Shown here: positions 1-18,355 of the stretch, piece by piece
Position numbering within the stretch: the first letter of the stretch is position 1
How the letters are laid out: each line of letters starts with the position of its first letter
Source of the DNA: Octopus sinensis
Lineage: Eukaryota
Length of the DNA: 18,355 nucleotides
Reading direction: 5' to 3'
Assembly (NCBI RefSeq): GCF_006345805.1
Contig: NW_021824508.1
Coordinates: forward strand, 1 to 18,355
The notes under the pieces: model-generated
Database searches by the model: none
The model's input: only the letters and a program-made list of their open reading frames with translations
Told to the model about the DNA's origin: nothing
Translations under genes and position numbers: made by a program

Positions 1-103
1 ATAGTTAATCCAAAATGACACTAGTAAGAAAAACAACAACGTGAGGACGTGGAATAAGTACAGTGTTATTGGACGCTCAGGAAGGAAGAAAAAAGAAAGA
101 GGA

Positions 104-135
104 TTAACGTTTCGAGCGGAGCTCTTCGTCAGAAT
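104..135 (-). ncRNA. Minimal hammerhead ribozyme motif (Penelope-like element type)
   Basis: Minus strand reads ATT-CTGACGA-A-GAGC-TCC-GCTC-GAAAC-GTT-AAT: CUGANGA core, 4-bp stem II, GAAA, palindromic ACGU stem III and a 3-bp stem I (AUU/AAU). This matches the minimal, dimer-dependent hammerheads of Penelope-like LTRs. Confidence 0.65.
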
Positions 136-264
136 ATAGAAAAAGTCCAAAGAAGGGAAGACAGAGAACGAAAATCACCAACGATACGCACGCGGTCAAA
201 TTTATATATTTAATAACAAAAACCAAAAAAAACAAACCAAATGTGTGCTTATACCACACAGAGA

Positions 265-271
265 TAATTAT

Positions 272-303
<32 letters not shown>

Positions 304-331
304 ATTATTATATATATATATATGATATATG

Positions 332-362
<31 letters not shown>

Positions 363-370
363 TATATATA

Positions 371-432
<62 letters not shown>

Positions 433-540
433 ATATGTATATATGCATTATATTATATATATGTATGTATATATGTAATATGCATATATATATATTATAT
501 AATATATATATATATGCACACACACATACACCCATACATA
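265..540. repeat. (TA)n / (TATG)n microsatellite
   Basis: Visible directly; explains the YI-rich ORFs at 308-792. Confidence 0.97.
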
Positions 541-549
541 TCTGTATCT

Positions 550-1100
550 ACCAGAGTAACAGATGTTGTTATACCCTGCTGGTCACAATGCAATTCTTTA
601 CATTGTTATGGCTTTCGAATGATGTTACTCCACTGGGCAGGTAGGCCGGTCAACATTCCGCTTTCCGAACGGAAAGCCAATTCATCACCGCAGGGTTATC
701 TATTTACAGCTGAGTGTCAGCGGGCGACTGACTGTCTTGTCAAATTTCCCTTTAAATACCTGCTGCTAGGCTCCAGCAGGCAGCCCCAGTAAGTTGTCAC
801 GTGACACTGTCTCAACTTTAACTGACCAATGGAGGGCGCGTAGTCTTAGCCCACGCATTCTCTAAATGAGACCGTCACCTGTCAATCAGCGAAGCTAATT
901 CAGTGTCAGCCTGTCTCACCTAGCGATGTTATTTTTCCTGCCGGCATGTTACGACTTTCTCGGGGAGACTCTGGGTGCGATGGACTGCAGCAACTGAGTG
1001 GACTTGCTCAAAAACACGAAGGACGGCTGATTTTGGAATCGAAATTACGATCTCGCGATTGAGAGTGCAGCAGCCTCATCACTAGGCCACACGCTTTCAC
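550..1100 (-). mobile_element. Decayed tRNA-derived SINE, interrupted by a 267-bp insertion at 712-978
   Basis: Minus-strand head GTGAAAGCGTGTGGCCTAGTGATGAGG...TTCGATTCC has A/B-box-like motifs. The body motif TTTACAGCTGAGTG|GACTG.AGCAAC, related to the 15222-15548 copy, is split by the insertion. The left boundary is approximate. Confidence 0.6.
712..978 (-). repeat. Inverted duplicate of 6400-6666
   Basis: Base-by-base comparison with the reverse complement of 6400-6666 shows 3 substitutions in 267 bp. Confidence 0.95.
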
Positions 1101-1380
1101 TCGCGTGCGCACATACACACACATGCGTGCGCGCATGAACATGCACATATACATGCAGAGATGACAATTGACAAATAATGAATAAGAATCGGAAATCAAA
1201 ATGTTCAAAATGTTTTGTATTATAAAAATAAATAGATACGTAATATAATTTAATGATTGGAAACGTGAAATTCAAATAACCAGATGTGTGGGGCCTGCTG
1301 TTGCTGTCAGAAATAACGCCGTTCCTTTGTTACGGAGTACTGTTTTACTCTTCTTGTATGCAACTACGTACTCTATATCT

Positions 1381-2218
1381 GTATGTATGTATGTATGTAT
1401 GTATGTATGTATGTATGTATGTATGTATGTATGTATGTATGTGTGTGTATGTATGTATATATGTGTTGTGAGTGTGTGTGTGTGTGTGTGTATGTGTGTG
1501 TTTGAGTGAGTTGGTGAAAGGGAGACGGAAAGAGAGTGAGAGAGAGAGACAGACAGAAAAACAGACAGACATATAGACATATAGACAGACAAAGAATCAA
1601 ATCCTAACACAGAAATTTAAACATCGTGAAGTATATTTGCCACTTAAATGTGGTTAACCCTTAAGGGCGGATGCTACTGTAGCTTGTAGCCCCAGGAGGA
1701 CACCTCCTGAAGCTACAAGCTACAGAGGCATCCACCCTTAAGGGTTAGCCATATTTAAGTGGCAAATATACTTCACGATGTCGTGCAGTTACTACTTATA
1801 CCTCGCTCAGAGATTTATTATTAGACATTTAAACATTTTGTATAAATCCGAAATAGTTTCTAATTCCTTAAGGGCAGATGCTACTGTAGCTTGTAGCCCC
1901 AGGTGTCCTCCTGGGGCTAAAGCCACAGTAGCATCCACCCTTAAGGGTCAGCCACATTTAAGTGGCAAGTATACTTCACGATGTTTAAATGTCTGTGTTA
2001 GGATAATGACTCGATTTGGTTCTCTGTCTGTCTATTTGTCTGTCTGTCTGTCTCTCTCTCTCTCTCACTCTTTTTCCGTCACCCTTTCACTCACTCACAT
2101 GCACACACACACACTCACACTCAAAACACATATATACATACACATACACACATACATACATACATAATACATACATACATACATACATACATACATACAT
2201 ACATACATACATACATAC
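1381..2218. repeat. Nested fold-back: long inverted repeat (about 1381-1744 vs 1866-2218) whose arms contain palindromes
   Basis: The (GTAT)n-(GT)n-(GA)n-(GACA)n mosaic plus unique sequence is mirrored on the right. Internal palindromes lie at 1621-1781 (ACA loop at 1700-1702) and 1866-1946. Confidence 0.92.
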
Positions 2219-2431
2219 TAAACTCCTCTCTTCGGACTAGACATTTCTCTTATGGGTACCAACTGTCTCTGCAGTGAGAAACACTAACCAAAAACACTCA
2301 CCTTTAAAGCATTAAACACCCTAGTGAAAGCCAATTATATTGCATTAGCAGTAATGATAGGTCATCAGAGTACTTACGAGTACAACTGCTGAGCTCTAAT
2401 GGGAATAGATTATACGTGTATTATTAAAAGC

Positions 2432-2590
2432 AGTAAACTGACAGAAGTGGACAAAATGCCTTGCACTATTTAATTACGTGATTCTTTATGTTATAAGGTT
2501 CAAATTCTGCTGAAAATTTACTTTTCATTATTACAAGTTCGATAAAATAAGTTCCAGCCAAATACTGATGTTGATTTAAATCATATAAAT
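2432..2590 (+). mobile_element. Heavily decayed family-A SINE remnant
   Basis: GGTTCAAATTCTGCTGA...CTTTTCAT...TCGATAAAATAAGTTCCAG resembles the intact copy at 7309-7545. Confidence 0.45.
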
Positions 2591-2770
2591 CCTATCATCA
2601 ATTCTGTCCATTGTCTCAGCTACTGTATTTCGGTTGAGGTCCTGTTTGACTTAAATCCATCCCGGATCGATAAAAGACTTCTTGATTGACAAAATGTTAT
2701 TCAAATACAGGATTCGATTAAAATCGATCATAACTCTTCCGTTCAAATATGTAGCCTTGCGCTTATATTG

Positions 2771-2962
2771 GTTTCAATATAGGCGCAAGGAGGGGTAGGG
2801 CGGTTATATCGATCCCAATATTCAACTACTACTTTTTTTTATCGAGCCCGATGAAAGGTAAAATCAACCTCGGTGGAATTTGAACTCAGAACGTGAAGCC
2901 GGACGAAATGTTGCTTAAGATTTTTGCCCGACATACTAACGATTCTGCAAGTTCGCTGCCTT
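2771..2962 (-). mobile_element. Family-A tRNA-derived SINE, decayed
   Basis: GATGAAAGG...GGAATTTGAACTCAGAACG...CTAACGATTCTGC is shared with the 11261-11491 copy. Confidence 0.8.
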
Positions 2963-3155
2963 TTCTTGCGCCCTGTATTAGAACTCATCATAAATAATAG
3001 TTGAATAGTCTGTAAGGTGCAGATTCAGTAAAGCACCAGGTAAACTAATTTCCAAAAAGAACCAGCCACGTTCTTTTAAATTCTTTTGAAATATGATAAT
3101 TATGCTAAAATAACAACCATATACAAGCTCTTCATTTATTAAACAAAAAATTAAT

Positions 3156-3552
3156 AGACGTAGGAGTGGCTGTGTGGTAAGTAGCTTGCTTAGGAACCAC
3201 ATGGTTAAGGTTCAGTCCCACTGCGTGGCACCTTGGGCAAGTGTCTTCTACTATAGCCTCGGGCTGACCAAAGTCTTGTGAGTGGATTTGGTAGACGGAA
3301 ACTGAAAGAAGCCCGTCGTATATATGTATATATGTGTTTGTGTGTCTGTGTTTTTGTCCCGCCAACATCGCTTGACAACCGATGCTGGTGTGTTTCCGTC
3401 CCCGTAACTTAGCGGTTCGGCAAAAGTGACCGATAGAATATTACTAGGTTTACAAAGAATAAGTTCTGGGGTCGATTTGCTCTACTAAAGGCGGTGCTCC
3501 AACATGGCCGCAGTCACATGACTGAAACAAGTACAAGAGTACAAGAGTAAAA
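3156..3552 (+). mobile_element. Family-B tRNA-derived SINE, full length
   Basis: A-box-like TGGCTGTGTGG, B-box-like GGTTCAGTCCC, then CCTTGGGCAAGTG, an internal (TG)n and a short-repeat tail. A homologous inverted copy lies at 8504-8918. Confidence 0.88.
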
Positions 3553-3680
3553 CAAAAGCAAAAATGAAAAAAACATTAAAAGCATCAACATAGAATGCTT
3601 ATTCTAGTTATGTAACATAACAAGGAAAAAATAGTTTCTTCAAAAAAAAAAAAAAAAAAGAAAAACGAAATGCTACTTAC

Positions 3681-3790
3681 GGATTAAAAAGCTCCAGTTC
3701 TGGTGTCCATATGTCACTAGGTTTGAGGAAAACCTCTTTAACACCTCCTTGAAGACCTGGATCCCACTTCAAAAGTTGGTCCTTCCATGA
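3681..3790 (-). CDS. Exon of a divergent nAChR-like (Cys-loop) receptor extracellular domain, containing loop A
   Basis: Acceptor ttttttctatcatag, donor gtaagt, 110 nt, phase 0 to phase 2. Translates to SWKDQLLKWDPGLQGGVKEVFLKPSDIWTPELELFNP, matching the WxDxxLxW...IWxPDIxLYN signature. Length and phases equal those of exon 4 of alpha7-type nAChR genes. Too short for the ORF track. Confidence 0.93.
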
Positions 3791-3910
3791 CTATGATAGA
3801 AAAAATATTGATCCATTTCTCCATATGATACACTAGTGTGTAATCTTCAACACATAACATATCACTCACACTTCAGTCTTTTCTTTCATGTAACAATCAA
3901 TTATTCATTA

Positions 3911-4152
3911 GATGACGATGGCGATGATGATGATGATGATGATGATCCTTTCTACAAGGATCCTTTCAACAACTACAAAGCCAGCAAGTCTGGGGGAGGA
4001 GCAAAGTCGATTACATAGACCCCAGAGCTCAACTGCTACTTATTTTATAGACCCCGAAAAGATGAAAGGCAAAGTCGGCCATGGCGAAATTTGAACTCAG
4101 AACATGAAGACGGACGAAATGACGTTCTAACGATTCTGCCAGCTCGCTGCCT
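3911..4152 (-). mobile_element. Family-A SINE with (ATC)n tail, intronic
   Basis: Head GGCAGCGAGCTGGCAGAATCGTTAG, GAGTTCAAAT B-box, GCCTTTCATC core; the (GAT)n run at 3911-3946 is its tail. Confidence 0.85.
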
Positions 4153-4385
4153 TAATAATAATAATAATCCTTTATACGATAGGCTCAAGGCCTGAAATTG
4201 TGGGGAAGGGGTTAAGTTGATTACATAGACCCCCAGTACTTAAGTGGTACTTAATTTAGCGACCCCCAAAAGATGAAAGGCAAAGTCAACCACGGCGGAA
4301 TTTGAACTCAGAACACGTAGCGACGGGCGAAATACCACGAAGCATTTCGTCCGGCATGTTAACCATTCTGTCAGCTTGCCGTCTT
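4153..4385 (-). mobile_element. Family-A SINE with (ATT)n tail, head-to-tail with the previous copy
   Basis: Same motifs as 3911-4152; (TAA)n at 4153-4168. Confidence 0.85.
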
Positions 4386-4422
4386 AACAACAACAACAAC
4401 AACAACAACAACAAGAACAACA

Positions 4423-4453
<31 letters not shown>

Positions 4454-4460
4454 CAACAAA
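4386..4460. repeat. (AAC)n(CAG)n compound microsatellite
   Basis: Visible directly; source of the poly-Cys tail of ORF 4384-4689. Confidence 0.95.
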
Positions 4461-4548
4461 AACCAACCATAACAACATTAACTGAATGAATCGAAAATTC
4501 TTTAGTTTTGTTTTTGTTATTGTTGTTGCTATTGAAGGTGGTACCTAC

Positions 4549-4712
4549 CAGAGAGTCTAAAGATGTTAGAGACATTATTCGGTTAGTCTCATCAATACTA
4601 AATGTTACTGGTGTCATTGTAAAGGTTATATTCATTGTCTCTTGGTTGTATTTGACAGGTCGAGCAGTGTCCACATACATATCCATCAAATCGCTTATAA
4701 GCTTCTGCTCTT
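4549..4712 (-). CDS. Exon of the same nAChR-like receptor: alpha1 helix to beta2 (loop D)
   Basis: Acceptor ttatcttgcag, donor gtaggt, 164 nt, phase 1 to phase 0. Translates to xEQKLISDLMDMYVDTARPVKYNQETMNITFTMTPVTFSIDETNRIMSLTSLDSL, with ExxLxxDL..Y...RPV and DExN motifs. Splices in frame to 3790-3681. Confidence 0.9.
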
Positions 4713-4720
4713 CTGCAAGA

Positions 4721-4743
4721 TAATGATAATGATAATAATAATA

Positions 4744-4801
<58 letters not shown>

Positions 4802-4889
4802 AATAATGATAATAATAATAATGATGATGATAATGATAATAATAATAATGATAATGATAATAATAATAATGATGATAATAATAATGATG

Positions 4890-4922
<33 letters not shown>

Positions 4923-4976
4923 TTAATAGTAATAATAATAATGATAATAATAATAGTAATAATAATAATAATAATA

Positions 4977-5032
<56 letters not shown>

Positions 5033-5061
5033 AATTATAATAATAATAATAATAATAATAA
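4721..5061. repeat. (TAA/TGA)n trinucleotide microsatellite
   Basis: Visible directly; abuts the splice acceptor at 4713-4714. Confidence 0.97.
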
Positions 5062-5605
5062 GTACCAGGCAGTGGCTCTCATGGCTTCTGATCTTAACTG
5101 ATTGGAAGTGTTATCATGTACATTGTTTTGTCTTGGTATAAAAGATGGGCTACAGCAAATATTCTGCTCAATACCACAGATTTGCTTGTCAGTTGTTTGA
5201 CCTTAACCAGTTGAGCATGTCCCTTAGTGGCTGACGATATGTGCATCTCTGATCACGAGCAGAAGTAGTGGGGGAGCATCATAGCCATGTGTTGAGAAGG
5301 ATTCTTTGGGGTTTGAATAATTCACCTCTGGAAACATGGGTGTTTCATTCAACATCCTTAAACAACCCTTATTCAGGGACCTTTTGAGCGGGATGGGTTA
5401 CTCGATCTGAAGAAAATTCTAACTGGGCTCCACCTGCAAGGTCATGTGCTGTTTATCTTGATATGAGATCACCATGTCGCGCACATATGGTTGTGATGCA
5501 TGTGCCTGGTGTACCCTTATCAGACGGGTAGTCATGATGGGTATACTGGGCTTCGTATATTTTACCCCAGTGTCACTTTGATGGCATGCTCTGCTCGCTC
5601 ACTCA
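5062..5605 (+). mobile_element. Interspersed repeat embedded in (TAA)n; probable 5'-truncated non-LTR 3' end
   Basis: Complex non-coding block bounded by TAA repeats on both sides, with hairpins near the right end (TACCC-ttatcagac-GGGTA; ACTGGG...CCCAGT). Family and orientation are inferred. Confidence 0.45.
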
Positions 5606-6432
5606 ATGATAATAATAATGATTTCATTTATTTGCCGCTAGGGCGAAGGATGAGGGGGACAATACAGAGACAGATATAGTGTGAACGTTTACATATAATA
5701 ATAAAATGGTAAAAAAAAAATTAAACATGGTATACACTGGAAAAAGAAGAGATATATGCATAGCATACAAAGGTACAAAAAAAAAAGTGGTGGCGGGGGA
5801 TGATAGAGATGTGACCCTCCTGATACAGAAACGGCTCTAGGGATAATCGAGGAACCCCACTGTCCGAGACTTCCCTGTAGTCCTATGAGCAAGTGCCCTC
5901 TCCAATTCCTTCTCCGCGACTCACATTTTCGCAACTTTCACCCACCTTTCAATAAACTCACTCGATGACAGCATTTCTCTCTCCACTCTCAATTTCCAGG
6001 AATGTATCTGTCCTCATGCTTTTCAGCTTTGTCTACCAAACAATCTCTTTCGCTACAGCCACCAGGCACAGGAAAAACTGCCTTGTCTGCCCGATTGAAG
6101 GAGGGTGGTGGTACAATCATCACTACAGACGCGGCCGACAGACAGATCCGTCCTACACGTGACAGCAGCTGTTCAACATAGCCCTACAAATCAGCAATGT
6201 CTGGACACTGAATGAGGACGTACAGAACGGTTTCTTAACTCTGCGCGTGCCCAGGACAAATCCGTCTGGCAGCGCATTCGTGCCTGTAGAGCTTGTCTCG
6301 AACCGGTAGCACTGCCAGGCCAAGGACATCTGGAAATTATCCATGATAGTTCCCGATCGGAAAGTTCCCCGGAACAAATTAGCCAGTTCATTCTCGTCGG
6401 CACCCAGAGTCTCCCCGAGAAAGTCGTAACAT
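5606..6432 (-). mobile_element. L1/Tx1-clade LINE 3' fragment (decayed ORF2 zinc-finger region plus 3'UTR)
   Basis: Frameshifted translation MDNFQMSLAWQCYR / LPVRDKLYRH...ICPGHAQS*ETVLYVLIQCP...AVAKEIVW...EFIERW fits the zf-RVT C-terminus. It ends in a T-rich UTR, AATAAA and an (ATT)n tail. Confidence 0.82.
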
Positions 6433-6489
6433 GCCGACAGGAAAATTAACATCGCTAGGTGAGACAGGCTGACACTGAATTAGCTTCGC

Positions 6490-6652
6490 TGATTGACAGG
6501 TGACGGTCTCATTTAGAGAATGCGTGGGCTAAGACTACGCGCCCTCCATTGGTCAGTTAAAGTTGAGACAGTGTCACGTGACAACTTACTGGGGCTGCCT
6601 GCTGGAGCCTAGCAGCAGGTATTTAAAGGGAAATTTGACAAGACAGTCAGTC
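6490..6652 (+). promoter_or_regulatory. Pol II promoter-like cassette
   Basis: TGATTGACAG at 6490-6499 (PBX-PREP type decamer), ATTGG at 6548-6552, palindromic E-box TGTCACGTGACA at 6572-6583, TATTTAAA at 6620-6627 and initiator TCAGTC at 6647-6652, whose A is 29 nt from the TATA start. Activity is untested. Confidence 0.6.
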
Positions 6653-7277
6653 GCTCGCTGACACTCGTTGAAGCTACAGCGAAGAGGCCAGGGAACAGAA
6701 GAAAGAAGACATGCACTCAACACCAGAGCTGAAGACACCTCTAAAAAGGATGGGGGGGGGGCGCCACTACAAAACGGTAGAGGAGTTAGGGGCCAAAACC
6801 GGACGTGGTTATTCCTGATGATGTCTTGAGCTAACTGGATTCTATAAAGGAGCTGTTGTGGTAGCAGACCACGAAACACGGTTGAAATTCCCCAAGAGTC
6901 TGTTTCTGACTGTTTAGAAAAAAATAGAACACCAAATGGGGAGGACAAGGTTAAAACGGAAGCATAAAAATAAACGAGAGGGGAAGTCAATAATTATAGC
7001 CCTATTACATGCTTACTATTGCTCTAGAAATTACTAACTAATTATATTGCAGAGGAATTGTATAACTTTCAGGAGAAGGAGAAACTATTATCGGAAGAGC
7101 AAAAGTGATGCCGAAAGAAGTCAAGAGGAACTGCCGATCTATTGTATATCAATAGCATGATACTAAGTGAAGTACAAATAAAAAAGAATTTAGCAATTGG
7201 TTGAGAAGGCTAGAATAATAGTGTACCACACTGTTGATTTTGGAATTCCTGAAGATACTCGAGGTCAGTAAGAAGAT

Positions 7278-7545
7278 GGCAGCGGCAAGCTGGCAGAAAC
7301 GTTAGCAAAGGCGGTGAGCTGGCAGAATTGTTAGCACGCCGGACAAAATACGTAGCCGTATTTCGTGTGCCGTTACGTTCTGAGTTCAAATTCTGCTGAG
7401 GTCGACTTTGCCTTTCATCCTTTCGGGGTCGATAACTTAAGTACCAGTTACGTACTGCGGTCGATGTAATCGACTTAATCCCTTTGTCTGTCCTTGTTTG
7501 TCCCCTCTATGTTTAGCCCCTTGTGGGTAATAAAGAAACAAGAAG
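7278..7545 (+). mobile_element. Family-A SINE with duplicated 5' head and possible AAGAAGA target-site duplication
   Basis: A partial head at 7278-7307 precedes a full copy from 7309; AAGAAGA occurs at 7270-7276 and 7540-7546. Confidence 0.88.
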
Positions 7546-8503
7546 AGTTCCATGTTTTAAATTATATGGGATCGTGAAGTAGAACTAAAACGTGGAAGTA
7601 AATCATTTGGAAATGTGATAATATGGAGTAAGATATTTTTGGGAGACTCACTCTCCCCATTAGTTTTCGTGGTTTCGTAAATTTCATTGAGAAACATACT
7701 GAGAGAATTCAATCCTGCCCATGAGCTTACTAAAACCAAGGTGAAAATAAATCATTAATCAATTATATGAATGACATGAAACTATGCACCAAAAATAGAA
7801 AAACAAAAAAGATCTAGATTCTCCTGTTCAAACGATATAAATATTTACCAAGATTATTGGCTTAGATTCTGAGGTAAGTAAGTGTGCAGCTTTACATATG
7901 AACAGAAGTCGAAAGATTAAACCTGATGGTACACGATATTGTGTGTAAAAAAATTATGAAGAACCTAGTGAAGGAAGGACATTATCTGTGTTCAGTAAAA
8001 TCGGAGAATTCTGTGAAACAGCGTGTGATATTATTAGATCGCTTAGATAATAATGAAGCTTACATGTACCCAGTGGTGTTTCGGAATTGAGAGAAAAAGT
8101 CTCCAAAGGGTACATGAGAATGATTAGGCGCTCGAAACGAACGAAAATACAGGGACTGTCAACAAAGTAATCGATATGTGGTCCGTATCAGTATTCAGAT
8201 ACTCTGTTCCTTTTCTAAAGTAGATAAAGAAGGACAGGGAGAGAAGGGGAAAGAGGGAGAGAGAGAGAGAAAGAGAAGGAGAGGAAGGAAGAGAGAGAAC
8301 TATAGGAATATGGTGGAATAATTAGGAAGGTTCATACAAAACATAACACTCCATCGTAAAACTAATACCGATAGGCTCTACTTACTCAAGAAGTTCATTA
8401 GTTATAGAAGGTACCAGCAGTGCTACAATGCCATATGACGGGAGCGTGGATATCAAAGAAATTGCGACAATTGAGAAAGAGCCAGAAGAAATACTGTTGG
8501 GCG

Positions 8504-8918
8504 TTTTACTCTTTTACTTGTATCAGGCATTTGACTGCAGCCATGCTGGAGCACCACCTTTAGTCGAGCAAATCTACCCCATGACTTATTCTTTGTAAGG
8601 CTAGTACTTATTCTATCGGATTCTTTTGCAGAACCGCTAAGTTACGGGGACGTAAACACACCAGCATCGGTTGTCAAGCGATGTTGGGGGACAAGCACAG
8701 ACACACAAACATACACACACACACACACACACACACATATGTATATACGTATATACGACGGGCTTCTTTCAGTTTCCGTCTACCAAATCCACTCACAAAG
8801 CTTTGGTCGACCCGGGCTATAGTAGAAGACACTTGCCCAAGGTGCCACGCCGTGGGAATGAACCCGGAACCATGTGGTTGGTAAGCAAGCTACTTAACAC
8901 ACAGCCACTCCTGCGCCT
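8504..8918 (-). mobile_element. Family-B SINE, full length
   Basis: Reverse-complement homologue of 3156-3552. Confidence 0.88.
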
Positions 8919-9467
8919 GTTTTGTTCGATATTATATTGCCACATGGGCAACGAGTGAGGGAGAGGGTATTTTAAGTATAAAAAGGAAGGGGTGGAATTT
9001 TACAGAAAACGAGTATTAGAAACAAACCTGAAAAAAGAAACAACATAGGCAAAAAAATACACGAGAATCTTCCAATAAAGAAACAACCACTTGGGAACTA
9101 TCAGAGAGCGCCACAGTTCCAAAATTTCCTATACTACCAAGGCAGGTACCTTCTCCTTCTTCGTAGTGTCGCTGTTGTTAGACATTAGGTAAACCCAAAT
9201 CTAACATGCCTATGAACAAAATAATTCCAAGAGACATCAAAGCTACATTATCCAACATATTCTTTTCTTTTAATAATATAGAATTTTGATCTAAGGGAAA
9301 TTTGGTTACTGTTTCTCATAGATTTAAAAATCCATGTAGAGGCTTCTTAGTTGGCTCGTTACAGGTTTTTTTTCTCTCCCGCAGTGTATGGTTCTTTTCC
9401 TACAGATGCATGACAAGAATAGATTCATTCTCACACTAATGGATTTTAAGACTCAACACTGAGCTAC

Positions 9468-9647
9468 AGTCGATTATCTCGTCAAAACACAGTTGACTGA
9501 TGATGATTCACAGCTTTTTATCGAGCCGGAAGGCTGAAAGGTAAAATCACCATCAACAGGATTCGAACACATTAGAATTTAAAAGAAGGTCACTTCCGCA
9601 AAACATTTTGTCCGACATGCCACGGAAATTGTCAATCCATCGCCGTC
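9468..9647 (-). mobile_element. Heavily decayed family-A SINE
   Basis: TTTATCGAGCCGGAAGGCTGAAAGGTAAAATC...GGATTCGAAC...CATTTTGTCCGACATGC. Confidence 0.55.
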
Positions 9648-10155
9648 GAGAAAAAAAAAACGCCGGCCTCACAGACATAAACAAAATAAATAAATCTAAT
9701 AGTATATAAATTATCTGTAGATTATGTAAATATTTGGACAAAATGTGAATGGGTTAGAGTTTCAAAGGTCAAATGGTTTGATGATTAGATGGTAGTGTTA
9801 GGGTATTTGGTATTGAATGTTACTGCCTGCTACCATCTTGGTCATATGTGGGAAGATCCCCAATTGCAAAATTGCCTCATGAATATTTAAAATTTTAATC
9901 AACTAATTTGTGTGAGAGGTATTTGCTGCCCAAATATTGAGGAAGCTCTATTCACAAGGTACATCGATCCTGATTGACATAGCAAACAAGGCAAACAAAT
10001 ATATACGTAGATATGTATGTATATGTAGTGGCCATGCAAAAGGTGGGTTCAATAGCAGGTCGAGAAAGATTTGATATCAAATTGCTACGAAAATCTCGAG
10101 AAGCTTCACTTGAGAAGGAAGGCTCGTTAAAGAATCACAGAGAAAGGGTTTAAAT

Positions 10156-10710
10156 CAGGGGTTCTCAACTTTTTTTTTATCTATGGATCCCTTTGATTAC
10201 TATTTATTTTTGGTGGATCCCACCCCTAGCCAATTATTCTTTACCAACCCGGCTGAAACTGGCTCTGACTCTGAGTACAAATGTCTTGTTTTCATAAGTT
10301 TTGAATTAAAATCTTCCACCAAACCTTAGTCACAATTTATGTTCCTAACACTAGCTTAATGATAACTAAGTTATTTTACTAAATTCTTTGTTATATTTAA
10401 AGTAATTGAAAGAAACACAGAGCATCTAAAAAAAATACAGTAACGAAAGGGTTAAAAACTAGTTTTATAGAAACTTCTTTCAAAATTCCAATTTGACTTT
10501 TCGCACATTAACTTGTGTAGGTTGAATTATGTAAAATATTAAAGAAAGAAACCTAGCCATTTCTTACAATAGATACACATGTAAAGAAAATTTTTTCAGG
10601 AGCCCTTAAAATACTATTGTGGATCCCCAATTTACTGTGTTTTTGCGTGGACTCCCAAAAATCTTACATGTACCCTCATCGGACATATGGACCCCGGTTG
10701 AGAACTACTG
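10156..10710. mobile_element. Non-autonomous hAT (Charlie-like) DNA transposon
   Basis: Termini CAGGGGTTCTCAAC and GTTGAGAACTACTG; 8-bp flanks GTTTAAAT (10148-10155) and GCTTAAAT (10711-10718); subterminal TGGATCCC-type repeats. Confidence 0.85.
10234..10455. mobile_element. piggyBac-like MITE nested in the hAT element
   Basis: The right end GTAACGAAAGGG-TTAA reads TTAA-CCCTTTCG on the other strand. The left end is degenerate (TTATTCTTTACC). Confidence 0.5.
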
Positions 10711-10789
10711 GCTTAAATGGATGAATGATACATTGCACTTCACAAAACCGCACATGAGTACACACATACATACACATACATACATACAG

Positions 10790-11590
10790 CGTTAGGGGAT
10801 GGAATGACGTTTGAGAAAGCGATGAAAAGCCAGGTGACCATCGTTGCAGGGAATAAAAGTGTAGAAGTGGTGAAAAAGACGGAGAAAGATTAGAAAGAAA
10901 GGAAAAGGAGTTGAATTGTTGAAGAACATGTGAAACGAGAGAGAAGCTGATAATGGGCAGGATGATGTCGAAGTACTTGAGATATCAGTTTTGTGGGTAA
11001 GTTGCAGGCGGAGATTATGGAACGGCCATGGTTATCAGGTTTATGAATTTTAGGAGGAAAATAGGCAGCAGAAGTGCATGGTATTTAGCCAACGAGGTTG
11101 ATGGTGGTGAAAAGAAGAAGAGGAGGGTTCAAGAAATGGATAGTGGAAGGGTTAATGGTGTTGGTAGGTCGGTATGAAGTCTGTGAGCAGAGGATGATAG
11201 AAGACAACGTTGAGAAGCTGTCGCAGCGCTTCCACTCAATAGAGATCGGCGGGCCATACCTGTTTCTTTATTGCCCACAAGGGGCTAAACATAGAGGGGA
11301 CAAACAAGGACAGACAAACGGATTAAGTCGATTACATCGACCCCAGTGTGTAACTGGTACTTAATTTATCGACCCCGAAAGGATGAAAGGCAAAGTCGAC
11401 CTGGGCGGAATTTGAACTCAGAACGTAATAGCAGACGAAATACGGCTACGCATTTCGCCTGGCGTGCTAACGATTCTGCCAGCTCGCCGCCATACCGTTA
11501 TAGTCTTGCTTTTGTCGACCTGTTTTATAACGATGGTATTTTGGCGGTTGAGGTTTCAGGGAGTTGTGATTTCTGCCCCGGTAACGTGAA
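10790..11590 (-). mobile_element. Decayed Penelope-like element reverse transcriptase fragment
   Basis: After removing the SINE: TIVIKQVDKSKTITVWPADLY*VEALRQL..FY; YFPPKIHKPDNHGRSIISACNLPTKLIS; FYTFIPCNDG..AF..FL. These match the PLE motifs IKPADKG, LPKIHK..PGRPIIS and LYT.IP. Confidence 0.85.
11261..11491 (-). mobile_element. Young family-A SINE with target-site duplication
   Basis: Intact head-to-tail copy. GCCATACC occurs at 11253-11260 and 11489-11496, and excision restores the PLE reading frame. Confidence 0.92.
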
Positions 11591-11667
11591 AGTGCTGAAG
11601 ACATTTGTGTTAGTTATACATATTCAATGAGCTGTTGCATACGTTAACAAACAAACCCAGGCTGATG

Positions 11668-11668
<1 letters not shown>

Positions 11669-11724
<56 letters not shown>

Positions 11725-11873
11725 TCACTCACACACACTCACACACACACTCACACACACACACAAACGCGCTCTCTCACACGCACACGTTTATCTGTGC
11801 GTATATATGTTTCTATGTGTACATGCGTATGTGTTTCTCTCTCTGTCTCTGTCTGTCTGTCTGTCTCTCTCTC

Positions 11874-11937
<64 letters not shown>

Positions 11938-12035
11938 CACATAGATACATACATACATACATACATACATACATAGAGAGAGGATTGACAGATATACTTA
12001 GATGTGTGTGAATTTGTGTGTGTGTGTGTGTATGC
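11669..12035. repeat. Compound (CA)n/(CT)n/(TA)n/(TACA)n/(TG)n microsatellite
   Basis: Visible directly. Confidence 0.95.
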
Positions 12036-12522
12036 ATGTGTTTAAGATATATAAGGTATCATATAAATGTTTAGACAACATAATTATCTAAATACACTCA
12101 AATTTCTTTGTGACAAATATTAAGACGATTAGAGGTTTATCGTCCCGCATATAAGAAGTCTGTCTAATTCTGTGAAAATCCCCAGAAGATCACTCTAATT
12201 CCTCATATCATTTTGTGCCATTGAAGTGCATCCACGTAAGTGTACTGCAAACATAAGAAAGGAAGTGCCTGCAGTGTATTTGAACTCAGTACCTAGTACT
12301 TTAGGCCTTTAGTTTGTTTTAGCAATGATGGTCATGACCATGGAGGGGCGACGCTTATATACACAAGTAACTCATATTTTTCCCACTCATACAAACAATA
12401 CAAACCTAAGCACAAAAGCGAATTAACTCTTTGCCTGTCCAAACCATTTTCATAAGTTTGTCCAAAATGTTTATACTAGTTTTTAGACTTATAATTGGCT
12501 GTGTTTCCATATGTTCTTATTA

Positions 12523-12663
12523 TAGATGTTTTCGATTTAGTTTGGATTCTTTGCCATCAAATTTGAATTCTTTGCAATCAAATTTGATGGCAAAGAAATC
12601 AAATTTGCTTGCAAAGAATTCAAATTTGATGGCAAAGAACCCAAACTAGATCGAAAACATCTA
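12523..12663. repeat. 141-bp palindrome built on 21-bp units
   Basis: Arms at 12523-12587 and 12599-12663 with an 11-nt loop. The unit ATTCTTTGCCATCAAATTTGA contains the palindrome TCAAATTTGA. Confidence 0.9.
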
Positions 12664-12809
12664 AAATATAAAGCTTTCCTTTCATAAGTCCCCAGTTACT
12701 CTGGTAGTTGAAAACGAAAATTGGGGATTGTGTATCATGTTTGATGCATGGATACGAAAGAAATATGCCTCACGTGATGCACAAAATAGGCAAGATCTGT
12801 TAATAAGTT

Positions 12810-12935
12810 TACTGCCCAACTACGTAACTTTGCGTTCGATCCTGCTGCGTCTTACGCAAACGTCTTCTAGTAATAGCTTCGAATCACCTAAAGCCGCTTG
12901 AGTGAAATTTGGTTAAGAGCTGCTCGAAGAAACCT
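12810..12935 (+). mobile_element. Decayed family-B SINE head
   Basis: GTTCGATCCTGCTGCG...GTCTTCTA.TAATAGCTTCG...TTGAGTGAAATTTGGT. Confidence 0.5.
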
Positions 12936-13254
12936 TCTTAGTTTTGGGGAAGAAGACTTCACGCCATTGACTTGACTTTAGTTGCCTTTAGTGGTGTCCA
13001 CTCTGATGCAAATAATCAGGTCAGGTCCTCGATTGGGAATAACTTCCTCCCAACATCTCAAAAGTCTTCGAATCCCCTAAAATGTTCATAGTTTCTGCTT
13101 TAACTTCACTCACCAAGTCAGTCACTTCCTTTCCACCTCTAATCCTGAGTATTGTAGGAAATGCGATTATAAATTCTTCTGGTCTTTATAAGCATCAGCA
13201 GTGATATAGTGATTAAAAGCGTTAACTGCACATGGTTTAGAAATAGGAGTCTCT

Positions 13255-13500
13255 AGCTAGAGGTTATGTGGTTACGAAGTTTGCTTTTTAACCACGTGAT
13301 TTCGGGTTCAGTTCCACTCTGTGATGCCTTAGCAAATGTTTTTTTCAAAGGCGCTTGGCCATTATTACTTTGTGAGTGAATTCGAGCGAAGGAAACTATT
13401 CACAAATGTATGTGTGTGTGTGAGTGTTTCGGAAAAAAAAGAAGAAAGGGGCCGATTTGATCGACTAAACCCTTCCAAGTGATGAACCAGTATGGCCACA
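13255..13500 (+). mobile_element. Decayed family-B SINE
   Basis: TGTGGTTACGAAGTTTGCTT..AACCACGTG..TCGGGTTCAGTTCCACT...TTGTGAGTGAATT, internal (TG)n and TCGACTAAA. Confidence 0.55.
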
Positions 13501-13794
13501 ATCCAATGGTTGCCACCTGTATAAAGGGAAAGAGTAAAGAGCCTGACCAAGAATATGACATCTTATGAAAATCGCGGATGAAACCGATGAAAATGCCGTG
13601 CAAGTGTAAATTTTAAAATATTAAATATAATGCTTCGTCTTTAAAAATGAGCGTGATGCTCCAACAATTAAATCTGTACTAACAATAACTCATTTCAAAC
13701 ACTGAGACACTTGTTATCGATGGAACAACAACTACTCTCATGAAGTGAATCAACAAAGTGTTTCTTTCGTAGTCGAGAAGGATAGTCGTCACTA

Positions 13795-14110
13795 TAACGA
13801 TAAACGTCGCCCTTTTCAAGCCTAACAAGGCTCATGGGCTCGGTTTCTCGGTTTCTGTGGCGTATATATTCCCCCCAGCTGGACGGGACGACAGTCCATC
13901 GCAGCGTTACTCAAGAAACAGGAAGAGAGAGTGAGAGAAAGTTGGGGCGAAAGAGTACAACAGGGGTCGCTACCACCCCCTGCTGGAGCCTCGTGGAGCT
14001 TTTAGGTGTTTTCGCTCAATAAACAAACACAGCGCCCGGTCTGGGAATCGAAACCGCGATCCTCCGACTGCGAGTCCGCTGCTGTAACCACTGGGCCATT
14101 GCGCCTCCAC
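13795..14110 (-). mobile_element. Family-D tRNA-derived SINE
   Basis: Head GTGGAGGCGCAATGGCCCAGTGGTTA...GGTTTCGATTCCC has A- and B-boxes, followed by about 240 bp of non-tRNA body. Confidence 0.8.
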
Positions 14111-14344
14111 TATATTCCCCCTCCCTATTTTCCTCTGTATATTGATCACATTTATTTTTGCTAGCTGAGTACAATAGGCTTCACTAAGGAGATTAGTAAT
14201 ACCAAAACATGTCTGTTGCTTTCATCTTTTGCCTTTAAAGACTACACGCCCTCCAATCTGCATTCTCTATAATGTACAGTACATCAGCCGTGTATGGTTT
14301 GGTAATATTATGTTGCTATAACTAATAGTTTAGGTGTCTATATA

Positions 14345-14864
14345 CTGTAAATCCTCGGGTATAATCCGCATTTCCCCCCCAAAATTTAAAGGTCAAAATC
14401 CTTAGTGTGTACTATATACGAGGTTAAAATTGAAAAATATTTTCTAAGCAATGTCCCAGTCTCTATTTGCTGTCCGGCAATGTTTATTCAGACACATTTT
14501 GTGATGTCGGACGCGAAAATACCTTAAGCTAAGCCTGAAAGCAATGAAGTCATAAAAGAATCATCCATAACTTGCAGTAAGCAACATTTATTGAAATAAA
14601 AGTATTCAGAACACAGAATAACATGTAACAAAATCAATTTGCAAAAATTTACATTCCCATATAACGGTTAAGAACATCACCATTATTGTATTACACATGC
14701 GCGGAAGTGTCTATTCGACTTGGTGCTACTGGCTTAATTACGCACGACTCAAGTTAGAGAAGAGGTGCGTATTATACAAAAGGTTTAGGTTTTTCAGAAG
14801 TATACTCCTCTAAAAGTCCCCTGCGTATTATACTCAAGGGCAGACAATACACGAGGATTTACGG
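14345..14864. mobile_element. Non-autonomous Tc1/mariner superfamily (Tc2/pogo-like) element
   Basis: TIRs CTGTAAATCCTCGGGTAT and ATACACGAGGATTTACGG, TA on both flanks (14343-14344, 14865-14866), and subterminal TATAC.CGAGG-type repeats. Confidence 0.85.
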
Positions 14865-14942
14865 TAGTCGCCAGCAGATATAGACGGAACATTAAGTATG
14901 TGCGAACTATGAGAGAGAACTGCACCAGTACATGGTCGCTAC

Positions 14943-15064
14943 GCATTTACAGCCGAGTAAATTGAATCATCGTGAAATACTGCACCACTCTCTCTCCAGG
15001 AATAGAACCGACGTTACTAATTACCTTGACTCGAACACCCTAACTACTAGGCCGCGTGACTTCA
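14943..15064 (-). mobile_element. Decayed SINE head related to family C
   Basis: Minus strand TGAAGTCACGCGGCCTAGTAGTTAGGGTG...GGTTCTATTCC...CTCGGCTGTAAATG. Confidence 0.5.
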
Positions 15065-15221
15065 TTGTGTGGTCTATATTTTCCTGACATTTCGATTTCA
15101 TGATCTTATTGAAGTTATCTCCCTTGCTGGACTTTTTAAAGATTTTAAATATCCCTAGAAGGTAATAACTACTTGGATAATATTAGTTGATCGAAGGTTT
15201 CCCGCTTACTATATTATATAT

Positions 15222-15548
15222 GAAGGCACATGGCTCAGCGGTTAGAACGTCGGGCTCCCAATCACGAGGTAGTGAGTTCAATTCCCGGATGTGCGTTGTG
15301 TTCTTGAGCTAGTCACTTTATTTCATGTTGCTCCAGTTCTCTCAGCTGTAGAAATGAATTACGACGTCACTGGTCCCAAGCTGTATCGACCCTTGCCTTT
15401 CCCTTGGATAACATCGGTGCCGTGGAAAGGAGAGGCTGGTATGCACATGTGACTGCTGGTCTGCCATAAACAACCTTGCCTGGACTTGTGCATCGGAGAG
15501 TAACTTTCTAGATGTAATCCCCTGGTCATTCATGACCCGATCCCCTTT
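15222..15548 (+). mobile_element. Family-C tRNA-derived SINE
   Basis: A-box TGGCTCAGCGG, B-box GAGTTCAATTCCC, then GTTCTTGAGC..GTCACTTTA and a non-tRNA body. Confidence 0.82.
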
Positions 15549-15994
15549 ATATTACATATGTAAGACTCTTGAATATAATATATATATGTTTATATATTCA
15601 ATTTTTCATTGGCATAGTCAGGAAATAAAACCGGCCCTCCCCCTGACCTTGGGAGACTGGTGAGACCGATGCGATATTTTAGTCTAACCTGAGTATACTC
15701 AAACCGGTGCGTTAATTAAAGGCAGGGACGTGGGCGATGAAGGAAATAAGGGAATAAAACGGTGGGTTGAAAGGCAAAGAGGGATGTTATGGTTGAACTG
15801 GGTAGAGGCTGCATATAATTAAGAGGAACATTACCCATGGTAGTAGATAGAATAGAAAAAAGAGAGAAGTGTGTATGTGAGAGAGGAGGAGGGAGAAAGA
15901 GAGGAAGGAGAATAAAGGGTCCGTGAGCTTGAGAATTTGGTGTTTTGGTGAGTATTTGTCAAATCATATTGGCTGGTGTTCATTCTGATGAGGT

Positions 15995-15997
<3 letters not shown>

Positions 15998-16039
<42 letters not shown>

Positions 16040-16056
16040 TGTGCATGCGTGTGTGT
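15998..16056. repeat. (TG)n microsatellite
   Basis: Visible directly. Confidence 0.95.
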
Positions 16057-16199
16057 AAATAACTATATTATTGCTGAGGCTGTACGTTTTTTTTTTGCAT
16101 ATAACAAGTCGTAATGCAAATATGCAAACAAAAACAAAACAAAAATCACACAAATCAAAAGTAAGAAAAACAAAAAGAGCAAACGCAGGACTGACGACG

Positions 16200-16200
<1 letters not shown>

Positions 16201-16244
<44 letters not shown>

Positions 16245-16398
16245 ATGATGATGATGGTGGTGGTGGTGGCGATGATGATGATGGTGGTGGTGGTGGTGGT
16301 GGTGGTGGTGGTGGTGGTGATGATGATGATGGTGGTGGTGGTGGTGGTGATGATGGTGGTGGTGGTGGTGATGATGATGATGGTGGTGGTGGTGGTGG

Positions 16399-16429
<31 letters not shown>

Positions 16430-17500
16430 GATGATGATGATGGTGGTGGTGGTGGTGATGATGATGATGGTGGTGGTGGTGGTGGTGATGATGATGGTGG
16501 TGGTGGTGGTGGTGGTGTGATGATGATGGTGGTGGTGGTGGTGATGATGATGATGGTGGTGGTGGTGGTGGTGGTAATAATGATGATGATGGTGGTGGTG
16601 GTGGTGATGATGATGATTGATTGGGTAGTGGTGGTGATGATGATGATGGTGGTGGTGGTGGTGATGATGATGATGAGGTGGTAGTGGTGTGAGATGATGA
16701 TGGTGGTGGTGGTGGTGATGATGATGATGATGGTGGTAGTGGTGGTGATGATGATGATGGTGGTGGTGGTGGTGATGATGATGATGGTGGGTGGTGGTGG
16801 TGGTGATGATGATGGTGGTGGTGGTGGTGGTGATGATGATGATGGTGGTGGTGGTGGTGATGATGATGATGGTGGTGGTGGTGGTGGTGGTAATAATGAT
16901 GATGATGGTGGTGGTGGTGGTGATGATGATGATGATGGTGGTAGTGGTGGTGATGATGATGATGGTGGTGGTGGTGGTGATGATGATGATGGTGGTGGTG
17001 GTGTGGTGATGATGATGGTGGTGGTGGTGGTGGTGATGATGATGATGGTGGTGGTGGTGGTGATGATGATGATGGTGGTGGTGGTGGTGGTGTAATAATG
17101 ATGATGATGGTGGTGGTGGTGGTGATGAGATGATGTGGTGGTAGTGGTGGTGATGATGATGATGGTGGTGGTGGTGGTGATGATGATGATGGTGTGGTGG
17201 TGGTGGTGATGATGATGGTGGTGGTGGGTGGTGGTGGTGATGATGATGTGGTGGTGGGTGGTGGTGATGATGATGATGGTGTGGTGGTGGTGGTGGTAAT
17301 AATGATGAGATGGTGATGGTGGTGGTGATGTGATGATGATGGTGGTAAGTGGTGGTGATGATGATGATGGTGGTGGTGGTGGTGATGATGATGATGTGGT
17401 GGTGGTGGTGATGATGATGGAGGTGGTGGGGTGGTGGTGGTGATGATGATGATGGTGGTGGTGGTGGTGATGATGATGATGGTGGTGGTAGTGGTGATGA
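16201..17500. repeat. 1.3-kb compound (GAT)n(GGT)n array with a higher-order period of about 27 bp
   Basis: Alternating blocks, mostly about four GAT then four to six GGT. Confidence 0.96.
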
Positions 17501-17589
17501 GGATGATGGTAATGGCAAAGAGGAGGTGGAAGTGGAGGAGGAGGAAGAGAAGGATGGTTACAACGATGATGAACGATTATGATACTATT

Positions 17590-17810
17590 AATCGTGAAAA
17601 TGACGGTAATGATTGATGATGATGATGATGATGATGAAATTGGTGATGATGATGATAATGATGGCGATGATGATGAGAGGGATAGGGCAATGGTGATGAA
17701 GAAGGAGCAGTAGCAGCATTTGTTAAAGAAGATAATGAAGGAGTAAGAGGAAGGGGAGGAGGAGAAGAAGAAGAAGAAGAAGAAGAAGAAGATGATGATG
17801 ATGATGACGT

Positions 17811-17852
<42 letters not shown>

Positions 17853-18055
17853 CGGACGACGACGACGACGATGATGATGAGAGGGATAGGACAATGATGA
17901 TGAAGAAGCAGTAACAGCATTTGCTAAAGATGAAGGAGTAAGAGGAAGAGAAGAAGAAGAAGAAGAAGAAAAGAAGAAGAAGAAGAAGAAGAAGAAGAAG
18001 AAGAGAAGAAGAAGAAGAAGAAGATGAAGATGATGATGATGATGATGATGATGAC
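17590..18055. repeat. Low-complexity (GAT)/(GAA) region containing a tandem duplication
   Basis: GAGAGGGATAGG..AATG..GATGAAGAAG..GCAGTA.CAGCATTTG.TAAAGA..GAAGGAGTAAGAGGAAG starts at 17675 and again at 17879. Confidence 0.9.
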
Positions 18056-18355
18056 ACTCGTGCAATTGCGAATGCATGTATATGAATACGCATGCATGTG
18101 CCGCTCGATGCACGTGCAGGTAGGTATATCATAATATCCTTTGCATAAAGAACTTGAAATGAATTTCTCTTCTGTATAGAGACGGGAGACTTTTATCAAC
18201 CACATTGTGATGATTGATTGATATCTCTCTTATATCAAAATGTCCTCATTAACTTTCTAGTTAGAACTGATTAGCACTGGTGGGAAATATTTAACAGCAT
18301 TGCAGTATGGCTATATGAATATTCATATTCTCTCTCTCTTTCTCTCTCACTCTCT

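Follow-up and report, generated by a model that had tools for sequence, protein, structure and literature searches.

Expansions, and clades with altered binding residues, are described among molluscan nicotinic acetylcholine receptors (nAChRs) in two studies (PMC6896357, PMC13174522). The AChRB anion channels are defined by a PAK motif that has been tied to chloride selectivity, and three members are reported in Octopus vulgaris, two of which are silent as homomers (10.1101/2025.04.02.646353). Cephalopod posterior salivary gland (PSG) transcriptomes contain the uncharacterized groups "PSG unknown 4 and 5," which are described as sister to AChRB (10.1101/2025.06.15.659772). The chemotactile receptors (CRs) form a further group and are described as intronless (PMC13174522; for background, see also PMC11526382 and 10.1101/2025.10.28.685082). 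We compared with these systems an octopod gene, two exons of which lie in the window, that is, the entire 18,355-base contig C979 of the Octopus sinensis genome (G000; 2.7 Gb).

The octopod gene is like AChRB (octopus AChRB1-3 and Lymnaea AChR B) in its membership of a larger clade (100/99), its M2 signature, and six introns (XP_036363179.1), but it carries A-D-K instead of PAK, lacks YxCC and the Trp residues of loops B and D, and is much faster evolving. Its tree position also resembles that of PSG unknown 4 and 5, judged from the text description, and the gene may be one of these groups. CRT1 and CRB1 (PDB 8EIS, 9E6B, and 8EIZ) are likewise nAChR derived, with ACh-binding residues lost and a fast-changing pocket (PMC11526382, PMC13174522). 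The CRs differ, however, in their apparently separate origin and in being intronless, tandemly arranged, and multicopy; their pore motif is G-E-K, and their loop C is shortened and has no Cys pair. The octopod gene is single-copy, contains introns (seven coding exons and a leader exon), and has a full-length loop C. The dopamine-gated cation channels termed DopC are also nAChR-like and not gated by ACh; they keep YxCC and the Trp residues of loops B and D, none of which the octopod gene has (10.1101/2025.10.31.685654). Alpo4 of Alvinella pompejana (PDB 8BX5), an orphan lophotrochozoan subunit, shares with it a loop A Phe and the absence of a vicinal disulfide, but Alpo4 keeps the Trp residues of loops B and D and both loop C Tyr residues, of which the octopod gene has only TyrC2 (PMC10338036). 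Literature searches by accession and by annotation name returned no paper, with supplements and the main CR and genome papers lying outside the search. The gene may already be present in the supplements of published trees or among the 41 channels screened by Courtney et al. (10.1101/2025.04.02.646353).

Structure and annotation of the gene

Both window exons lie on the minus strand. Coding exon 2 (exon A; 4712-4549, 164 nt, phase 1 to 0) encodes the N-terminal helix, beta1, and beta2/loop D of a Cys-loop receptor subunit, with the loop D Trp changed to Leu. Coding exon 3 (exon B; 3790-3681, 110 nt, phase 0 to 2) extends from the end of beta2 to loop A, where Tyr is changed to Phe. The intron between them (3791..4548, minus strand) is 758 nt long, has GT..AG ends and phase 0, and contains simple and SINE-like repeats. 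The start of the next intron (1..3680, minus strand) runs off the contig, and the upstream intron probably takes up 4713..18355 of the same strand. Pfam Neur_chan_LBD matched the two exons in the right order, at positions 1-50 (E 3.9e-4, by itself below cut-off) for exon A and 56-91 (E 2.5e-6) for exon B, and the PDB matches of both were nicotinic receptor and AChBP chains.

The preliminary description of the window, which was made from its letters, had proposed that the two exons join in frame. In addition to their AG/GT ends and open frames, we found 4549-4711 joined straight to 3790-3681, with the 758-nt intron absent, in one contig per run in 4 of 4 runs, and in a fifth run the letters of exon B formed a loose end at 4549, which is the same joint. 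The 4549/3790 junction and the proposed joining were thus borne out in all five runs examined (five study codes and two organism codes), out of 24 listed. The runs are only presumed to be RNA, but the intron is skipped exactly in them. Three letter differences in the run contigs were all synonymous on hand reading.

Several repeats were observed around these exons. An inverted pair of 267 nt that is 99% complementary (712-978 and 6400-6666, 5.4 kb apart) flanks both exons; it consists of young repeat copies and could favor inversion or back-splicing of the two exons. The stretch 1426-2166 is a palindromic, MITE-like element; its arms are 1426-1569 and 2023-2166 (81%), and it has further self-complementary repeats inside. 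CAC/CAT/ATC trinucleotide repeats span about 2 kb at 15,980-18,200 and produce long spurious open reading frames.

Exon A led to a 96% identical Octopus bimaculoides protein, whose cluster includes O. vulgaris CAI9716434.1 and O. sinensis XP_029645319.2. The gene is therefore not "hidden," as had been supposed, since its protein is annotated in three Octopus species, automatically as nAChR alpha-5/alpha-10/beta-3-like. Searching G000 with the O. bimaculoides protein located five more exons (exons 4 to 8) at G000:C1:182,083,000-182,049,896 on the minus strand. C1 is a chromosome-scale contig, and the window is a stray contig of the same gene. The exons for the Cys-loop, loop C, and the TM segments, which had been expected below position 1 of the window, are thus found on C1. 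The seven exons (164, 110, 79, 370, 84, and 116 nt and the last exon) give a stop-free translation of 443 aa that is identical to CAI9716434.1 from its Met (435/435) and to XP_029645319.2 (352/352), and 344 of the 443 residues are identical in the Argonauta hians protein P0009. It matched PF02931 and PF02932 and contains a Cys-loop (Cys116-Cys130 in the numbering of P0005, with 13 residues between and FPFD), and Neur_chan_LBD is followed by four hydrophobic segments, taken as TM helices. As read from this translation, the gene encodes a four-TM Cys-loop subunit of the nAChR-like branch. It is single-copy among the G000 candidates scored. A soluble AChBP, which the preliminary description had raised, was rejected because the full-length protein has four TM segments, and a pseudogene fragment was rejected because of the intact 443-aa frame and its splicing.

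A scaffold gap of 100 N (G000:C1:182,097,506-182,097,605) is located inside the gene, 14.5 kb upstream of the first C1 exon. Contig C979 and the missing leader exon probably belong in this gap; no sequence overlap was found between the contig ends and the flanks of the gap. In three of four runs, position 4712 is joined by a 5' loose end that translates to the last part of a leader resembling that of Argonauta. The signal peptide is whole in P0009, and the Octopus RNA loose ends show its last codons only. Neither tblastn nor an ATG..GT scan of the window plus 160 kb of C1 detected a signal-peptide exon; an exact pattern gave 0 matches in G000, and allowing 3 mismatches gave none in the window or in 91 loci. 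The O. sinensis model is without both window exons and starts at a short unrelated exon (C1:182,085,338). The remaining Octopus models lack a signal peptide, their first residue being an internal Met. Every Octopus gene model for this locus is N-terminally incomplete.

Placement beside the AChRB family

In a search of 1.84 billion representatives, the gene itself was followed by P0010 and P0011 (34-36% identity, 283 bits), after which scores dropped. Word-limited protein searches returned no named orthologue outside Octopus and Argonauta, and among the G000 candidates scored nothing was closer than 42% per exon to P0010 or P0011. Trees were built with FastTree on 182 rows (3 of 185 sequences were left out for short cover) and with IQ-TREE under LG+G4 on 44 of the 182 rows, with no mixture model and with long branches. 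The octopod gene grouped with P0010, P0011, and P0027 (100/98 in IQ-TREE, with FastTree in agreement), the branching order of P0010 and P0011 being weak (92/50). In the best tree, it lies inside an AChRB-related clade (100/99), which is labeled by the PAK motif and contains no sequence named AChRB1, and outside the PAK-motif core of that clade (99/97). Forcing it inside this core was not rejected (AU p=0.060), in a test weakened by LG+G4 and long branches. No one-to-one grouping with canonical nAChR subunits was recovered by the phylogeny that the preliminary description had suggested.

From loop D to the M3-M4 loop, all six introns lie at the same codon and in the same phase as in the paralogue XP_036363179.1, which is found 3.3 Mb away on C1. 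Trees and shared intron positions together place the gene beside the AChRB family. The introns had been described as alpha7-type. The 110-nt phase 0/2 exon is indeed present, but it is not distinctive, as all three AChRB-type paralogues mapped share it; two of these lack the intron after loop E.

Forcing the gene with the CRs was rejected (AU p=0.011 with two focal rows and p=0.036 for a five-row subclade that includes its three relatives; LG+G4, long branches). The CR array itself is located on another contig, C16, which holds 22 of the 66 matches of the gene's protein in G000, all in open frames of 374-523 aa; the preliminary description had likewise taken described chemotactile arrays to be largely intronless. 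One array member is closest to CRT1 (E 7.5e-137). Membership in the CR family was rejected on the AU tests, the introns, and the array elsewhere, and the suggested kinship with these receptors was not upheld. The trees and the seven coding exons on C979 and C1 do support the accompanying suggestion of a separate intron-bearing divergent lineage outside the CR array. An origin independent of the CRs is our best reading of the sequences. That the gene is nevertheless a CR-family member, a soluble AChBP, or a pseudogene fragment is very unlikely. The loss of ACh-binding residues recalls the CRs, and the window contains two exons only, but the AU values, the intronless array on C16, the four TM segments, and the intact, spliced frame all speak against this explanation.

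Other loci from the same comparison deserve mention. Loci L050 (G000:C6303:132,543-136,226) and L052-L054 (C9587 and C12601) are AChRB-related with S-P-S-K rather than S-P-A-K before M2, have short introns, and occur as several near copies on unplaced contigs. L013 (G000:C25:24,657,967-24,661,818) is an intronless, long-branch nAChR-like sequence with a 582-aa open frame outside the C16 array; it is without the loop B Trp and vicinal Cys residues and is a CR-like candidate. P0184 and P0185 are AChRB-type proteins with nearly identical sequences except in the M2-M3 exon, the pattern expected of alternative pore exons.

The gene has changed faster than its paralogues. Between Octopus and Argonauta, 144 of 196 extracellular domain (ECD) residues are identical, compared to 206/209 and 196/209 in two AChRB-type paralogues; for TM1-3, the values are 78/86 compared to 88/88 and 86/87. 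The faster change of the ECD fits relaxed constraint as well as new tuning.

Ligand pocket and pore entrance

Pocket residues were mapped to human alpha7 via the intermediate P0011 and on the 182-row alignment. The positions of the aromatic cage are occupied by Phe in loop A, Glu in loop B, Cys at TyrC1, Tyr at TyrC2, and Leu in loop D. By this mapping, four of the five ACh-binding aromatics are lost, and TyrC2 alone is unchanged. Of 182 aligned rows, 156 have the loop B Trp and 3 have Glu; in the octopod gene it is replaced by Glu in Octopus and Ala in Argonauta. Loop C has kept its length but reads CxGC in place of YxCC, TyrC1 being replaced by Cys and the first vicinal Cys by Gly; CxGC is also found in Argonauta. 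A loop C with CxxC and no CC occurs in only 5 of 177 rows scored, 3 of which are the octopod gene. O. vulgaris, O. bimaculoides, and Argonauta all share the extended motif CxGC-D-x-P-Y, which argues for a retained constraint on the loop C lid.

These changes go beyond what the two window exons alone showed. The preliminary description had noted three differences there: Leu in place of the loop D Trp, with Asp as the next residue; Phe in place of the loop A Tyr; and beta1 one residue short. Comparison with PDB alpha7, alpha9, and alpha1 chains confirmed all of them, with the qualification that Phe is common in loop A (26/182 rows). The deletion, located before loop D, is common to P0010, P0011, and several sister sequences and absent from CRs and the PAK core. 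A fourth difference, PD to PE, holds in Octopus but is not a trait of the whole gene, since Argonauta keeps PD. The general proposal of a divergent gene with a degenerate aromatic cage, probably not gated by ACh, agrees with the alterations in loops A, B, C, and D.

The pore entrance (-2'/-1'/0') reads A-D-K, a cation-type motif, compared to P-A-K in all three octopus AChRB-type proteins; the 9' residue of M2 is Met. An AlphaFold2 model of P0009 from a six-row alignment was poor (mean pLDDT of 55.6, with most of the ECD below 50) and was not used.

We hypothesize that the protein folds as a pentamer subunit in which loop B Glu (Ala in Argonauta), Cys at TyrC1, and loop D Leu would leave neither face able to form a cation-pi box. 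In loop C, Cys178 and Cys181 could form a shifted CxxC disulfide, with the lid still braced. Asp at -1' without Pro at -2' would confer cation selectivity, the opposite of AChRB. Alternatively, the CxxC pair and the acidic residues at the pocket could form a metal site or thiol switch, so that the channel would be gated by metal ions, protons, or redox state. A CxxC at the tip of loop C is rare in the family, and the replacements at the pocket are acidic (loop B Glu and the Asp after loop D). Loop B is, however, Ala and not Glu in Argonauta, and extracellular Cys pairs usually oxidize to structural disulfides. We regard such gating as improbable.

The relatives suggest an order of events. P0010 keeps the loop A Tyr, loop B Trp, YxCC, and TyrC2, while P0011 has loop A Phe and loop B Ala and keeps YxCC and the loop D Trp. 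Pocket residues may therefore have been lost stepwise on this lineage, from an intact state (P0010) through a partial one (P0011) to the remaining losses in octopods, separately from the CRs. YxCC in P0010 and P0011 and the annotation as nAChR alpha-5/alpha-10/beta-3-like would also suit a conventional ACh-responsive subunit, serving as an ordinary non-alpha partner with a low-affinity site. However, the complementary face would require a loop D Trp, which is also absent, and the gene does not group one to one with canonical subunits; there is little chance that this explanation is correct.

Possible functions and significance

Our leading interpretation of the sequences, to which we assign a probability of roughly 45%, is that the spliced octopod gene encodes a four-TM subunit beside AChRB, likely part of a cation channel whose ligand is not ACh. 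Several observations weigh against it. Selectivity is read from one motif, TM1-3 also changed faster, and loop B is Glu in Octopus but Ala in Argonauta. The gene is single-copy, unlike expanding chemoreceptor families. Nesting in the PAK core reached an AU p of 0.060, and the trees were built under LG+G4 on long branches. In addition, of three octopus AChRB genes, two are reported to yield no current as homomers, and partners may be needed in this family (10.1101/2025.04.02.646353).

A tentative alternative is, in our view, almost as likely. The protein may bind no ligand and occupy a nonbinding position in an AChRB-type heteropentamer, where its acidic -1' residue, placed in an anion channel, would modify gating or ion selectivity. 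Such a role would explain equally well the losses on both faces, principal and complementary. It is also consistent with TM1-3 being kept far better than the ECD, with the AChRB-like M2 signature, and with the homomeric silence of AChRB2 and AChRB3 (10.1101/2025.04.02.646353). On the other hand, Octopus and Argonauta share the unusual CxGC lid and TyrC2, and the nearest relatives combine intact alpha-type pockets with an acidic -1', which indicates that the lineage left AChRB long ago. Precedents for accessory subunits are the vertebrate alpha5 and beta3.

If the channel is instead opened by a ligand other than ACh, a more speculative scenario can be drawn, which we hold to be rather unlikely as a whole. 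The gene would represent a second independent cephalopod route from transmitter receptor to chemosensor, in which a single-copy, intron-bearing AChRB offshoot in octopods had its aromatic box dismantled, used the lost TyrC1 for a CxxC-braced loop C, carries a cation-type pore, and came to detect a nontransmitter chemical that originates from prey, microbes, or secretions, the site of detection being the suckers, mouth, or salivary gland.

The octopod gene is real, expressed, and intact; it encodes an orphan subunit beside the AChRB family that has been annotated automatically but apparently not studied. Mollusks have many divergent orphan nAChRs; what appears unusual here is the near-complete loss of the ACh pocket together with the rare CxGC loop C. 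Since the Octopus models are N-terminally incomplete, clones made from the annotation would likely fail, and the channel has probably never been tried. Its binding pocket would be among the most stripped in the nAChR branch. P0010 and P0011 would serve as living intermediates that give the order of loss, forming a natural series for the change of ligand and charge selectivity in Cys-loop receptors. An accessory role might account for the silence of some AChRB subunits when alone; a sensory role would represent convergence with the chemotactile receptors.
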